Assembly (NCBI GenBank): GCA_022508465.1
Contig: JAFLVB010000002.1
Location: 628-64,627, forward strand
Length of the DNA: 64,000 nt
DNA from: Clostridiales bacterium
GTDB taxonomy: Bacteria; Bacillota; Clostridia; Christensenellales; Pumilibacteraceae
Reading direction: 5' to 3'
Part shown: positions 27,592 through 62,130 of the stretch, in pieces
How the letters are laid out: every line of letters begins with the position of its first letter
Position numbering within the stretch: position 1 is the first letter of the stretch
Translations under genes and position numbers: made by a program
Notes under the pieces: model-generated
The model's input: the letters and a program-made list of their open reading frames with translations, nothing else
What the model was told of the DNA's origin: nothing
Databases searched by the model: none

Positions 27592-28704
27592 TCAAATTAC
27601 AGAATTTTTTCCAATCACATACGGATTTGTAGGATGCCCGCTTAGCATTCGCGATTCGAGGATATGTGCGTTCTTATCGGTTATAACGCAGTTGAGGAAT
27701 GTCCCTTCGCCCACCTCGGTGTCTTGGAATAGTATGCTGTTTTTTACCACCGCGTCCTCAGCAACCTTTACCCCTCTAAAGAGTATGGAGTTTTCCACTC
27801 TGCCCTTAATCACGCACCCGTCCGCTATAATCGAGTTTTTGACCGACGAGGATGCCGCAAATCTGCACGGCGCGCTGTCACGCACCTTGGTGTAAATGTT
27901 AGCGCCGTCGTTATCAAACAGCATAGCGCACTTGTTGCGGTCGAGTAGTTCCATCGAATGGTGGTAGTAGTTTGCCACCGAATCTATGCTTGCAAAGTAC
28001 CCCGTATGCTCGTAGCCGTATATGCGATAGTCCCTTACACCTCTGCAAATGACGTCTCGGTCAAGGTTCCAAATATTAAGCTCCTCGCTATTATCGAGGA
28101 GTGAGCACAAAAATTCGCGACCCATTATATACATATACGTGCCTACGTTTTGTTCGCCCTTAAACTTATCGCTCTTGGCGGCGTCCGTAACAAGCCCGTC
28201 ATCATCTATCGTAAAGCAAATCTTGTTCTTTTCGTTACCGTCGCCAAGGTCCTTTTTGCGATAGATGACGGTAATGTCGCTCATTCTGTCCTCGTGGAAG
28301 GCGAGCGCCTTGCTAAAATCGAAGTTGCATACACAGTCGCCGTCGGCAAGCACTACATAGCGCTCGTCCGAGTTTTTTATAAAGCTTACAGAGTATTTTA
28401 ATGCCTCCCACCTCGTATTGTAAACCTTGTCGATACTGGGCGGCAAAATTCTGAGTCCGCCTATCTTGCGCGAGAGATCCCAAGACTTGCCGCTGCCCAC
28501 GTGCTGCATAAGCGATTGATAGTTGCTGCGCGTTATCACCCCTACGTTGTATATGCCGCTGTTTGCCATGTTTGACAGATTGAAATCTATAAGTCTGTAT
28601 CTGCCGCCAAACGGGACGCTCGCAAGAGTTCTGCCCGCCGTCAACGTACCTATCTGCTTTTCATTGATATTGCTAAAAATGACCCCCATTGCCTTATTAT
28701 TCAT
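27592..28704 (-). CDS. glgD: Glucose-1-phosphate adenylyltransferase, GlgD subunit
   Basis: Motif [22 protein letters not shown] without the catalytic GGxGxRL motif. It sits directly after glgC, as in Bacillus-type operons. Confidence 0.88.
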
Positions 28705-34103: not shown

Positions 34104-35528
34104 TCATGGTCTCATTAAGTCGGACAACGACTCGGATATCGATTTTTTACCTTGCCTGCCGTATTGATCTACCTGAGCTTTATTTTTAGCGCCGTGCGAT
34201 AAACATCCCGCACCGCCTATGCAGCCGCCGTCGCATGCCATGCCCTCTATAAAGTTGGCACTGAGCATATCCCTGCTCTTTCTGGCAAGTGCGGCACGGC
34301 ACTCCTCTATGCCGTTACAAACACACGCATTAAGCTTAAAGTCGCTACCATGTTCCATAAGCCCTTGCTCGACCGCACCCGCAACGCCGCCGCTGCCCGC
34401 AAAATTTCTGCCGTAGTACGATGCACTCTCTATCGTCTCTTCCTCGAGCGTGGAGATGTCTATGTCGCGACTGTCAAACAAGGCTTGAAGCTCCTCATAC
34501 GTCAGTACAGAATCGACATAGGGCTTTACGGTATCGAGCTGAATTTCGGCTTTTTTGGCGGTACACGGTCCTATAAACACCACTTTGGCGCTATCATTCT
34601 TATCCTTAAGATATTTGGCTATTGTCGCCATTGGGGACAGATTGCTCGACACATACGGCAATAACTCGGGATATGCCGACTTAATATACTTTACAAATGC
34701 CGGACAGCACGAAGAAGTCAAAAAGCCCTTTTCGGCAAGCTCCTCAGCCTCACTCTGCGCGACCATATCCGCACCAAGCGCTACCTCTACCACCTCACTA
34801 AACCCGAGTTTTTTAAGTCCGGATATCACCTGACCGAGCTTGGCATATGTAAATTGTCCGTAGATAGACGGAGCTATAACCGCATACAGCTTGTGCTCGC
34901 CGCGCAAACTCTTTTTGAGCATATCAATGACGTTAAGAATAAACGACTTATCCATAATAGCGCCAAACGGGCATTGATAAATACACGCTCCGCACGCAAT
35001 ACACTTGTCGGCATCAATAGACGCTATGTTTTCCTCATTGATGGAAATCGCCTTGATCTTGCAAGCGTTTTGGCAAGGGCGCTTGCGATTGACGATAGCG
35101 GAAAACGGGCATACGCTTGCGCATTTGCCGCATTCTATGCACTTGGTTTTGTCTATATGGGCAGCGTGAGCGTAGTCAAAGGAAATCGCCCCCGACTTAC
35201 AAACACTCTCGCAGCGGTGCGCAAGACAGCCTCTGCACGAAGCGGTGACATCATAGCCTGCCGCGGGACACTCATCGCACGCGATACTGATAACTTCAAT
35301 AACATTGTGGTTATCCTTGTTGCCGCCCATAGCGAGTTTGACACGCTTGGTCAAAATTGCGCGTTCTTTATAGACGCAGCAACGCATGGTGGGAACTTTG
35401 CTCGGGTGGATGATCTTGGGGATATCCAACAGATTTTCGAGCAGAGTATCGTTCCAAGCCTGCTTTGCCACTTCGCGCAGCACTCTGTATTTTAAATTTT
35501 CGACATATGTATCAAATTCTCTCGTCAT
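34104..35528 (-). CDS. [FeFe]-hydrogenase-like protein with N-terminal ferredoxin-type clusters (474 aa)
   Basis: H-cluster motifs TSSCCPAF, GPCTAKKAE and EGMACDGGCIGGAGC. Two CxxCxxCxxxCP motifs upstream. SD AGAGGAG present. Confidence 0.85.
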   Translation of the reverse strand: MTREFDTYVENLKYRVLREVAKQAWNDTLLENLLDIPKIIHPSKVPTMRCCVYKERAILTKRVKLAMGGNKDNHNVIEVISIACDECPAAGYDVTASCRGCLAHRCESVCKSGAISFDYAHAAHIDKTKCIECGKCASVCPFSAIVNRKRPCQNACKIKAISINEENIASIDADKCIACGACIYQCPFGAIMDKSFILNVIDMLKKSLRGEHKLYAVIAPSIYGQFTYAKLGQVISGLKKLGFSEVVEVALGADMVAQSEAEELAEKGFLTSSCCPAFVKYIKSAYPELLPYVSSNLSPMATIAKYLKDKNDSAKVVFIGPCTAKKAEIQLDTVKPYVDSVLTYEELQALFDSRDIDISTLEEETIESASYYGRNFAGSGGVAGAVEQGLMEHGSDFKLNACVCNGIEECRAALARKSRDMLSANFIEGMACDGGCIGGAGCLSHGAKNKAQVDQYGRQGKKSISESLSDLMRP

Positions 35529-35540
35529 TATAACTCCTCT

Positions 35541-35645
35541 TACTTTTTTTGTAAAAAAGTAAGCAAAAAACTTTTAAAGATATAGGTTTGAGCTGTAGCC
35601 CGAAAAGCAGGCTTGCCTGCCAAAAAACTTTTAAGGGAATATGTT
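35541..35645. repeat. Intergenic repeat element, single copy of the family also found at 61829-62130
   Basis: TACTTTTTTTGTAAAAAAGTAAGCAAAAAACTTTTAA ... GAGCTGTAGCCC ... GCAGGCTTGCCTGCC. The first 36 nt are near-identical to the copy at 62051, differing only by one extra T in the T-run. Confidence 0.8.
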
Positions 35646-35782
35646 TATAGTTCAAAATGCAAACTTGTTTGCTTTGCAATTATATTCTAACATAAAATAA
35701 AAAAAATTTCAACAAGAAATTACAGGAAATCTCGACATAAAATTTTATATACAAAAATGATTATAATAATCAATCTTTTTTA

Positions 35783-35811
35783 TTGCTTTTTAACTTATTA
35801 ACTGATATAAT
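35783..35811 (+). promoter_or_regulatory. Promoter of DUF3737-patB
   Basis: TTGCTT (35783-35788), 17 nt, TATAAT (35806-35811). It lies 34 nt upstream of ATG 35846. Confidence 0.55.
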
Positions 35812-35845
35812 TGTTACAGAAAACCCTAAAGAAGGAGCAATAGAA

Positions 35846-36697
35846 ATGAAAGAGATTAAAAGACAATTTTTGACGGGCGAGCGCAGCCTCTTTTGCGGTA
35901 AAGACCTCTATATTGAGGACTCAATCTTCGCAGACGGAGAATCTCCGCTTAAAGAAGCAAGCGACATTACACTTGAAAACTGTATGTTTAAGTGGAAGTA
36001 TCCCCTTTGGTACTGCAAGAATGTCAAAGTAAACAACAGTTACTGGTTTGAAATGGCACGCTCCGGTATTTGGTACACCGACAATATCAGCATGACCAAC
36101 ACCGTTGTCGAAGCTCCCAAAAATTTTAGACGTGCAAGCAATATTTATCTCGAAAACGTAAACTTTGTTAACGCTGCCGAAATGCTTTGGTCGTGCCGCG
36201 ACATCAAAATCAAAAACGTGACCGCTAAGGGCGACTACTTTGGTATGAACAGCGAAAACGTCGATATCGACGGGCTCACCCTTGTGGGCAACTATATGCT
36301 TGACGGCGCTAAAAATATCACCGTTCGTAACAGTAAATTGATGTCTAAGGACGCATTCTGGAATGTAGAAAACGCCACCGTTTACGACTCTGTAATACTC
36401 GGCGAGTATCTCGGCTGGAACTCCAAAAATCTTACATTCATCAATTGCACAATCGAGAGCTTACAAGGCCTGTGCTACATAGACAACCTTGTTATGAAGA
36501 ACTGCAAGCTTATAAACACTACCCTTGCATTTGAATATTGCTCTGATATAGACGCCGAAATCGTAGGCAAGATTGACAGCGTACTCAACCCTACAAGCGG
36601 CACAATCACCGCCGATCACATCGACGAGCTTATCATTCAAAAAGACAAGGTCGATCCGAGTAAAACTCGCATCATTTGTAAGAATGGGGATAAATAA
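35846..36697 (+). CDS. DUF3737-like beta-helix protein (283 aa)
   Basis: GERSLFCGKDLYIEDSIFADGESPLKEASDITLENCMFKWKYPLWY and repeated N..V/I turns. Start is ATG 35846 after GAAGGAG. Family assignment is from memory. Confidence 0.6.
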   Translation: MKEIKRQFLTGERSLFCGKDLYIEDSIFADGESPLKEASDITLENCMFKWKYPLWYCKNVKVNNSYWFEMARSGIWYTDNISMTNTVVEAPKNFRRASNIYLENVNFVNAAEMLWSCRDIKIKNVTAKGDYFGMNSENVDIDGLTLVGNYMLDGAKNITVRNSKLMSKDAFWNVENATVYDSVILGEYLGWNSKNLTFINCTIESLQGLCYIDNLVMKNCKLINTTLAFEYCSDIDAEIVGKIDSVLNPTSGTITADHIDELIIQKDKVDPSKTRIICKNGDK

Positions 36698-60435: not shown

Positions 60436-61815
60436 CTAATTCTTTTTTATATCGTAGCCGTCTTTTTTGTCGACAACGGTGTAGCCGAGGGCGGCTATTT
60501 GGTCGCGCAGAGCATCGCTAAGCGCCCAGTCTTTATTTTTACGCGCCTCTAACCTCTTGTCCGCAAGTTCTGCCACCTCGTCAGGGACCTCTATCTTCTC
60601 CTCCTGCGGGAGCGTGTCGAGGCGAAGTCCGAACACGGTATCGAACTTTTGCACAAGCTCGTAAATCTGCTTGGACGCAGGTTCTTTAAGCATATTCCAT
60701 AACACGCCGAGCGCGAGCGGAATATTTATGTCGTCGCTTATCGCATCGGTAAAATCTTTTTCGTACTTAGCAAGGGTTTCTTTCGGCGTTTCGGCTTTAC
60801 CGTTACGGTGCTCGTTTATCGCCGACAACAGCCTTGTATACGCCGTCTTAGCAGCGTCCATTGCGGCAAATGTAAAGTTGAGCGTCTTGCGGTAGTGCGT
60901 GTTGAGGCAGAAGTATCTGAACACCATTGGCGAGTAACCTTTTGCCTCGAGGTCGGCAACTGTATAAGTGTTGCCCAGCGACTTACTCATCTTGCCGCCG
61001 TCCACCTGCATAAATTCGCCATGCATCCAGTAGTTGACCGTTTGATGTCCTTCGAGCGCCTCGCTTTGCGCGATCTCGTTTTCGTGATGGACGGGGATAT
61101 GGTCGACGCCGCCTGTATGGATATCAAAGCGGTCGCCGAGATACTTCTTGCTCATTGCACTGCACTCTATATGCCAGCCGGGATAACCCATACCCCAGGG
61201 CGACGGCCATTGCATAATATGCTCCTTGGGCGCCTTTTTCCATAAAGCGAAATCGGCAGGGTGACGCTTTTCGTCGTTGACGTCAACGCGCGCGCCTGCT
61301 ATCTGATTGTCGAGGTTAAGTCCGCTCAGCTTGCCATATGTCGGGAATTTAGCTATATCGAAGTAAATTCCGTCGCTTGTCTCGTAGCCGTAGCCGAGGT
61401 CGACAAGTTTTACTACATAGTTAAGCATATCGTCGATATGCTCGGTCGCCTTGGCAATTATTTCGGGCTTGCCTATATTGAGCTTATTAAGGTCGTCCAT
61501 AAACGCCTTTGTATACATTTCGGCAATCTCGTAAACAGACTTTTGCTGTTCACGGCTCGCCTTAGCCATCTTGTCTTCACCCTCGTCGCCGTCGCTGAGT
61601 AGATGACCGACATCGGTGATATTCATAACGCCCTTGATCTTGTAACCGTTGTATTTAAGCGCACGCCTAACGCTGTCCATAAAGATGTACGCGCGCATAT
61701 TGCCTATGTGAGCGTAGTTATAAACGGTGGGACCGCACGAATACATAGTTACTGTTTTGCCAAGCGGCACGAATTCTTCCTTCTTGCGCGAAAGAGTGTT
61801 GTAAAGTTTTACCAT
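60436..61815 (-). CDS. cysS: Cysteine--tRNA ligase
   Basis: HIGN motif ([10 protein letters not shown]), KMSKS motif ([10 protein letters not shown]), and Zn-ligand context WHIECSAM. Confidence 0.96.
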
Positions 61816-61828
61816 AACTTCTCCTTGT

Positions 61829-62130
61829 TACTTTTTTGTAAAAAAGTAACCACCTACTTTTTTGTAAAAAAGTAGGCAAAAAACTTTTAATGTGGTTATA
61901 AACTGCTTATTTCTAAGCCCGGTCTTTAGCCCTATATGCAAGCTCGCTTGCTTACTTTTTTGTAAAAAAGTAGGCAAAAAACTTTTAATGTGGTTATAAA
62001 CTGCTTATTTCTAAGCCCGAGCTGTAGCCCTATATGCAAGCTCGCTTGCTTACTTTTTTGTAAAAAAGTAAGCAAAAAACTTTTAAGGATATATGCTCGG
62101 GCTGTTGCCCTAAATGCAGACTTGCCTGCC
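61829..62130. repeat. Tandem intergenic repeat array (98-bp period, about 3 units) with AT-rich perfect hairpins
   Basis: TACTTTTTTGTAAAAAAGTA occurs at 61829, 61855, 61953 and 62051. Units 61855-61952 and 61953-62050 differ at 3 positions. The third unit diverges after CTTTTAA and resembles the 35541 copy. Confidence 0.9.

Follow-up and report, generated by a model that had tools for sequence, protein, structure and literature searches.

The hydrogenase locus and its repeat

The 64,000-nt stretch of DNA analysed here (the window) carries a gene whose product matches Fe_hyd_lg_C (PF02906, 4.5e-62) and 4Fe-4S ferredoxin (Fer4) domains in Pfam. It is divergent from a DUF3737 gene, a pairing that is kept in congeners without the repeat described below, and a sister locus with repeats of the same family lies before cysS. 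The features are as follows.

34104 to 35528, minus strand: [FeFe]-hydrogenase-type gene, 474 aa, with the repeat in its leader (ORF list; Pfam)
35534 to 35540, minus strand: Shine-Dalgarno (SD) sequence AGAGGAG, 5 nt upstream of ATG 35528, its first two bases belonging to the outermost stem pair (sequence)
35539 to 35563, unstranded: core hairpin ct-TAC-T7-GT-A6-GTA-AG with an 11-bp A/T-rich stem, of the 'ct/AG' sub-lineage and with one T extra (sequence, folding, covariation)
35564 to 35577, plus strand: tail module 1, CAAAAAACTTTTAA (sequence matches)
35578 to 35620, plus strand: 'type A' module, AGATATAGGTT-TGAGCTGTAGCCC-GAAAA-GCAGGCTTGCCTGC (13 strict copies genome-wide; sequence)
35621 to 35634, plus strand: tail module 2 (CAAAAAACTTTTAA), the end of the type A module (sequence)
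35659 to 35672, plus strand: third GC hairpin GCAAACTTGTTTGC, a partial type A module adjoining TTTGCAATTATATTCTAAC (sequence)
35684 to 35712, minus strand: best candidate hydrogenase promoter, TTGAAA-17-TAGAAT with a TG extension (consensus scan; match only)
35846 to 36697, plus strand: divergent DUF3737 gene (Pfam PF12541, 1e-126)
61829 to 62130, plus strand: sister locus before cysS, a solo hairpin followed by 2.4 units of a 98-bp core + type A tandem array (sequence, repeat analysis)

The plus strand reads TACTTTTTTTGTAAAAAAGTAAGCAAAAAACTTTTAA at 35541–35577 (taken from the window sequence), and 62051–62086 in the cysS array is the same sequence with six T residues rather than seven. The tail at 35590–35621 (GAGCTGTAGCCCGAAAAGCAGGCTTGCCTGCC) is a variant of the tail at 62099–62130 (GGGCTGTTGCCCTAAATGCAGACTTGCCTGCC). 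An earlier sequence-only reading of this DNA had reported both the match and the related tail, with which the sequence agrees, and had missed a second tail copy (CCAAAAAACTTTTAA, 35620–35634) as well as the third GC hairpin at 35659–35672. The repeat-derived stretch before the hydrogenase gene reaches approximately 35672, and its order across 35539–35672 is hairpin, tail, type A, tail, partial type A. The TTTGCAATTATATTCTAAC motif is common to other copies that lie in a start context. In the window, the 20-mer palindrome with up to three mismatches gives nine strand-hits (five sites) where 0.03 are expected, and the tail 15-mer gives six matches where 0.47 are expected.

On the minus strand the hairpin runs without any gap into AGAGGAG (35540..35534), then TTATA and ATG 35528, such that the last two stem bases (AG) double as the first two of the SD purine run. 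The copy before cysS (61829–61848) has the same geometry, GTAAC-AAGGAG-AAGTT-ATG; the flush arrangement that had been described for both genes is therefore present in both. A search with Rfam found no T-box before cysS. Folding gives the hydrogenase hairpin a free energy of -7.9/-8.0 kcal/mol as DNA and -7.7 to -8.5 kcal/mol as RNA, and its stability in sequence context is not better than that of shuffled sequences.

Two conventional roles for this hairpin were rejected. An intrinsic terminator is not supported, as the stem has no U-tract after it and 35450–35900 contains no terminator-like site. Sequestration of the SD is not supported either: GGAG is left unpaired, and for the extended pairing the ensemble frequency is 0.03 and the z-score -0.6. 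Also on the minus strand (35527–35555), the palindrome centre TTTACA and a start-overlapping TATAAT-G together form an 11/12 match to a sigma-70 promoter with a 17-nt spacer, from which transcription would start a few bases inside the hydrogenase ORF. The consensus match TTGAAA-17-TAGAAT suggests that the repeat lies inside a hydrogenase leader of about 150 nt, in which it would be transcribed antisense to its tail-defined orientation.

A modular family with a covarying A/T hairpin

The genome to which the window belongs (G000) is a 1.55-Mb metagenome-assembled genome (MAG) in 88 contigs, 93% complete, with 43.8% G+C and 1431 ORFs. A regular expression recovers 45 core sites in it and an nhmmer profile 57 distinct copies, 55 of which are outside ORFs on a crude ORF map. 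The family core is 36–37 nt long and consists of an 11-bp A/T hairpin with CAAAAAACTTTTAA on one side, this tail invariably being on the side of the hairpin away from the adjacent coding sequence (CDS). With the tail used to set the orientation, all copies follow the pattern NN-TAC-T6-loop(GT, GA, GG, AGT or AGGC)-A6-GTA-N'N'-C-A6-C-TTTTAA. The core family has the short palindromic unit, the high copy number and the extragenic location that are among the marks of REP-type repeats.

The outer stem varies in a compensatory manner. In a set of 35 different cores drawn from several genomes, CG accounts for 20 of the 2/25 pairs, GC for 10, AU for three and UG for two, with none unpaired, and at 3/24 there are 13 UA, 12 CG, three UG and two GC pairs; over these two positions 92% of cells are paired. 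Position 1/26 is unpaired, and the stem is therefore 11 bp. The stem covariation score is 0.204, as compared to 0.058 for shuffled alignments and at most 0.07 with a slid partner. Alternative stems (GCAAC/GTTGC, GGAAC/GTTCC and CCCAC/GTGGG) are found around a T6-GA-A6 interior.

Further modules are attached to this core. The type A module contains GCTGTAGCCC ... GCAAGCTTGCTTGC and is closed by another copy of the tail; its terminal GC hairpin covaries between copies (GG/CC, AG/CT, AA/TT). Core and type A modules form tandem arrays with 57-, 94- and 98-nt units, and both doublets and arrays are head-to-tail, not inverted. The resulting structure, a core followed by (type A + tail) x n, has the terminal modules and variable number of internal modules by which BOX-type elements are recognised. 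A 'type B' module, in which the core is followed by GTAGG and a G+C-rich hairpin (for example GTAGGCCTCCCCCTTGAGGGGGAGGC or GTAGGGGTCGGCGTCCCCGACGACCC), occurs in G000 at C22:15012–15340, C20:177–300 and C45:18713–18900, at loci L050 and L060, and at JAZKZP loci. These type B modules resemble classical GTAG-tagged REPs.

Rfam returned no hits on the window, relaxed thresholds yielding sub-threshold chance matches to plant miRNA hairpins, and the core sequence string was not found in the literature searched. The A/T-hairpin mosaic repeat has apparently not been described before. Two side observations may be recorded here. At L048:2910–2950 and at 61930–61972 of the window, a G+C hairpin lies directly before a core whose T6 arm supplies a U-tract, and such junctions (AGGACGCTTAAAAAGCGTCCT-TACTTTTTT, GCAAGCTCGCTTGC-TTACTTTTTT) mimic an intrinsic terminator. 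Elsewhere, L001:981–1083, equivalent to G000 C3 ~28249–28351 on the minus strand, holds a TPP riboswitch with a score of 62.3 bits, which exceeds the gathering threshold; the core copy at C3:28766 is about 400 nt away.

Placement at coding borders

The sequence-only reading had considered the location of the hairpin next to two ribosome-binding sites (RBS) to be hard to explain by chance, and the genome-wide statistics bear this out. Of the 42 repeat-bearing intergenic regions (IGRs; median length 304 nt), 26 have the hairpin edge no more than 10 nt from a CDS border, against 4.6 expected for uniform placement, and not one of 200,000 simulations gave as many as 26. The tail edge is that close in one of the 42. 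The polarity, CDS-hairpin-tail, is constant.

At least six genes have their SD flush with the hairpin, namely the hydrogenase gene, cysS and those for a lysyl-PG-synthase-like membrane protein, an M24 peptidase, a small lipoprotein and an esterase, while the starts of GluRS, a Y-family polymerase and Tex lie 23–56 nt from a core. Most copies, however, abut the 3′ rather than the 5′ ends of genes. The stop-flush genes include those for a Crp-family regulator, ABC-F, MntP, CorC, a GGGtGRT protein, ABC exporters, an M29 peptidase, Jag/KhpB, GyrA, IF-2, TspO, MscS, Veg, ProRS, ArgRS and a flavodiiron protein. In these 3′ contexts the gene's own terminator is beyond the core, and the core would therefore be transcribed. 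As a separate observation, four of about 30 core-touching genes encode aminoacyl-tRNA synthetases (GluRS, CysS, ProRS and ArgRS; in G000 at C1:46033, at C12 (window 60436–61815), C67:13125–14564 and C8:20223–21716), with a binomial p of ~8e-4 relative to ~20 in 1431 ORFs.

Where the sequence permits, the stop codon overlaps the base of the stem, as in T[AG]-TAC at infB. The registers are TA[G-T]-TAC in the gt/AC lineage and TAA|CT- or CC-TAC elsewhere, and TAA|NN-TAC recurs in ten copies from other genomes. Reading of the flanks in G000 shows that 15 of the 22 abutted stops are TAG, compared to 17% of stops genome-wide (p = 2e-7). In all four of the orthologue sets examined (infB, Jag/KhpB, argS and ABC-F) the last residue is the same and relatives mostly use TAA or TGA. 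The junction between infB and rbfA measures 4–18 nt in seven congeners and 81 nt in G000.

The orientation of the copies tracks the adjacent gene and not the direction of replication inferred from GC skew. We rejected a replication-strand polarity, the ratio of 29 leading to 15 lagging copies merely mirroring the 78% gene-strand bias, and also a strand-specific RNA signature, for which T·G outnumbers A·C at the stem base by 5:1 in G000 and all genomes together give four GU and seven AC. In G009 (a congener), SGB_4687, SIG685 and JAZKZP, most cores are flanked by further modules instead of CDS borders, and the border rule therefore applies to 'naked' cores.

Distribution in related genomes

We surveyed 41 related genomes with the strict 36-mer core. 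It occurs 27 times in G000, 28 times in G009 and once in each of two other genera, and is absent from eight of the ten genomes of the same genus. The exact core (32 specified bases) is nevertheless found at 47 loci in about 12 named, distantly related Oscillospiraceae/Clostridia assemblies, including Porcipelethomonas ammoniilytica, Oscillospiraceae SIG685, Eubacteriales SGB_4687, UMGS1771, a Hadza MAG and iMGMC-715, in which the flanking genes share 64–82% DNA identity with G000. The core is better conserved than housekeeping genes, which together with its flush placement and strict polarity leaves room for a host-selected function. In these assemblies it sits in species-specific flanking modules and tandem arrays. 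Contigs often end 40–190 nt past the core, and breaks fall within the element, which is what the assembly of a multi-copy repeat would be expected to produce. A wide occurrence in phages, plasmids and unrelated bacteria was rejected: blastn against phages and plasmids gave only marginal 38-nt A/T-palindrome matches (E ~2e-3), which we do not take as homology. The exact core is present in a single IMG/VR contig, the flanks of which are those of a Porcipelethomonas chromosomal contig.

The spacer between the hydrogenase and DUF3737 genes allows a direct comparison. Two congeners with a hydrogenase 75–76% identical to that of G000 (G001 and G008) keep the divergent pair with a ~165-nt spacer from which the core is absent. 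They lack an SD, and exactly 6 nt separate the hydrogenase ATG from a perfect TTGACA-N17-TATAAT (L010 in G001 and L011 in G008, both at ~1455–1503), a spacing that looks like the geometry of a leaderless mRNA. In G000 and in a metagenomic sister (L105), by contrast, the gene is preceded by an SD and a long leader. The sister, with a 93% identical hydrogenase and the same patB-DUF3737-hydrogenase synteny, also has the element flush with the SD at this site, but there it includes one more module, of type B, and another palindrome, which bring the spacer to 463 nt compared to 317 nt in G000. Its promoter-like site upstream of the repeat, TTGGAA-17-TACAAT, is the counterpart of TTGAAA-17-TAGAAT in G000. 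In G009 a variant core, GGAAC-T6-GT-A6-GTTCC-ACAAAAAACTTTTAT, is found ~430 nt upstream of the hydrogenase gene (L014); its different position, after the terminator of another neighbour, indicates that it is probably an independent insertion.

Discussion

Our results identify the sequence at 35539–35672 as one copy of a non-coding, modular, dispersed intergenic repeat, which is most likely a mosaic of the REP/BOX-like kind, is probably mobile and is not an operator for cysteine or Fe-S genes. The family is patchy in close relatives yet near-identical in distant ones, and it therefore most likely spreads, or is homogenised, as semi-selfish DNA. Lineage-specific GC-hairpin modules are attached to the shared core, often as tandem arrays. 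The hydrogenase copy would have entered the hydrogenase/DUF3737 spacer after the split from the repeat-free congeners, and may now constitute most of the hydrogenase 5′ leader, between the TTGAAA-17-TAGAAT promoter-like site and the SD. As RNA, it would form a weak A/U hairpin directly 5′ of an RBS that is not sequestered, and any effect would therefore be generic (leader processing or protection of mRNA ends) and common to dozens of unrelated genes.

PF01797 (Y1/RAYT), PF01548 (IS110), PF07282 (TnpB) and PF13358 (IS630-type DDE_3) have no match in G000 or G009; these are MAGs of 93% and 87% completeness, from which multi-copy IS elements may be lost, and the missing transposases are therefore weak negative evidence. 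The only PF01797 match in the genus is a pseudogene in the repeat-free G001 (L065, C113:81–374), an IS200-type Y1 transposase with one in-frame TAA that happens to be on the same 4.7-kb contig as the DUF3737-hydrogenase pair. Minimal copies of the repeat at infB, C42 and argS have no flanking direct repeat, the nearest repeat-free spacers are too diverged to provide a clean empty site, and the only close relative, L105, is also filled at the hydrogenase position. The hairpin arms are the only inverted repeat in the element. Counting against a mobile repeat is the exact flush placement with strict polarity, which simple random insertion does not predict. The placement could result from targeted insertion, from successive deletions that ratchet up to an essential border and no further, or from selection for a hairpin that protects RNA ends.

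Another possibility, compatible with a mobile origin, is that the host exploits the repeat as an RNA module: an endonuclease of the RNase Y/E type would enter at the A/U-rich tail, and the CDS-side hairpin would remain to cap and protect upstream messages at their 3′ end or downstream ones at their 5′ end, which would account for its closeness to the coding sequence. Comparable RNA-level effects are documented for REP, ERIC, Correia and BOX elements (PMC3049150). Such a role is consistent with the CDS-hairpin-tail polarity, with the contrast between hairpin and tail edges at CDS borders (26 and one of the 42 IGRs, respectively), with orientation that follows the adjacent gene and not replication, with the likely transcription of cores ahead of terminators in 3′ contexts, and with the compensatory changes that maintain the hairpin. 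We nonetheless think it rather unlikely as the principal explanation, given that the hairpin is weak (~-8 kcal/mol) and not better than shuffles in context, that G·U pairs are not in excess over A·C, that eight congeners manage without the element, and that most cores in G009, JAZKZP and SIG685 are flanked by modules and not by CDS borders.

It is conceivable, if doubtful, that the core represents a 'coding-border-seeking' class of hairpin element not recognised before, for which structure-specific insertion or selection on transcripts sets the base of the stem on a stop or an SD, hairpin first, without the involvement of known REP or MITE enzymes. TAA or TGA would then be rewritten to TAG where the stem base allows. 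A more conventional TA-target/TSD insertion of the Tc1/IS630-like type into TAA could account for the TAG-T, TAA-CT and infB registers; we have not adopted this idea, as it fits neither the SD-flush copies nor TGAACC, and a DDE_3 gene is absent.

A portable promoter or UP-element cassette, with the hairpin centre providing a -35 box (TTGAAA/TTGTAA forward, TTTACA in reverse) and the A-tracts an UP element, might drive or boost the transcription of neighbouring genes or of small RNAs in the arrays. In its favour, copies in Porcipelethomonas, iMGMC-715 and UMGS1771 have a TATAAT-like box 19 nt past the core, the reverse reading at the hydrogenase gene gives an 11/12 match (TTTACA-17-TATAAT), and the tandem 57–100-nt units resemble multi-copy sRNA arrays. 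The cassette is improbable for several reasons: the spacing to the -10-like box varies between genomes, the sequence 17–19 nt downstream in G000 is TTTTAA or otherwise unlike a promoter, the reverse site would initiate inside the ORF, most copies face the ends of genes, and no Rfam family matches. Finally, the sequence-only reading had thought it conceivable that the hairpin is a shared regulatory element for cysteine and Fe-S chemistry (hydrogenase, cysS, patB), but the features in its favour (an identical SD-flush setting at hydrogenase and cysS, and a 20-bp palindrome of a size typical of operators) are overturned by a genome-wide catalogue in which some 57 copies lie mostly behind the stops of functionally unrelated genes, with no sulfur or Fe-S theme or enrichment and other SD-flush genes as diverse as those for the peptidase, esterase and lipoprotein, and by the absence of the family from eight of ten congeners and from orthologous hydrogenase spacers; these findings rule out a conserved control element of this kind, and a shared cis-regulatory operator or leader, which would show conservation at orthologous promoters, coherent targets and a fixed outer stem in place of one that covaries as if structure mattered more than sequence, is scarcely credible.

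Comparison with known repeat families

The closest parallels to the mosaic repeat are found in three groups. REP/BIME/REPIN elements of Proteobacteria, which are associated with RAYT transposases (Di Nocera 2013 PMC3733652; Bertels & Rainey 2011 PMC3116915), are similarly short palindromic units in tens of copies, extragenic and often just after genes, that form mosaics or arrays with other motifs, vary in abundance between species and are probably transcribed as hairpins. The core differs in that its stem, TAC-T6/A6-GTA, is almost pure A/T and not G+C-rich, and in that a consistent GTAG or CGTC tag is missing, GTAG arising only in the cc/GG sub-lineage via the stem base; some type B modules (GTAGG + GC hairpin) are more REP-like than the core itself. 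Doublets are direct here, unlike the inverted pairs of REPINs, and neither G000 nor G009 has a RAYT/Y1 gene.

The BOX elements of Streptococcus pneumoniae, with the structure boxA-boxB(n)-boxC (Croucher 2011 PMC3049150), are likewise modular repeats of Firmicutes with a variable number of internal units. They are transcribed as 5′ or 3′ extensions of operons, have no known dedicated transposase and were once mistaken for a regulon signal on account of their neighbours, features that the present repeat would share. Rfam searches detected no sequence relation. In contrast to BOX, a 20–26-nt A/T hairpin core is common across genera while the other modules are species-specific, and descriptions of BOX do not mention a placement flush with coding borders in a fixed polarity. 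As with the Correia elements of Neisseria and the ERIC sequences of enterobacteria, both MITEs with RNA-level effects (PMC2229807, PMC3184786), the repeats described here are small, non-autonomous intergenic repeats that fold as RNA, may have promoter-like ends and may create RNase sites. Terminal inverted repeats around an internal segment and a target-site duplication could not be demonstrated, and no IS630, IS110, IS200/605 or TnpB partner was found in G000 or G009.

Implications

For annotation, recognising the repeat does away with an attractive but mistaken regulon connecting hydrogenase, cysS and patB, and accounts for the breaks at such sites in assemblies of these gut Clostridia. The same A/T-hairpin repeat is common to many uncultured Oscillospiraceae and to one cultured species, Porcipelethomonas ammoniilytica. 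It has rebuilt the leaders of genes, as at the hydrogenase, which is seemingly leaderless in relatives and here has a module-built 5′ UTR and an SD, and it has rebuilt junctions between genes such as that of infB and rbfA. How small repeats choose the sites at which they are found, or survive there, is a puzzle made concrete and testable by the TAG bias and by the precise, polar way in which this one touches stop codons and ribosome-binding sites.
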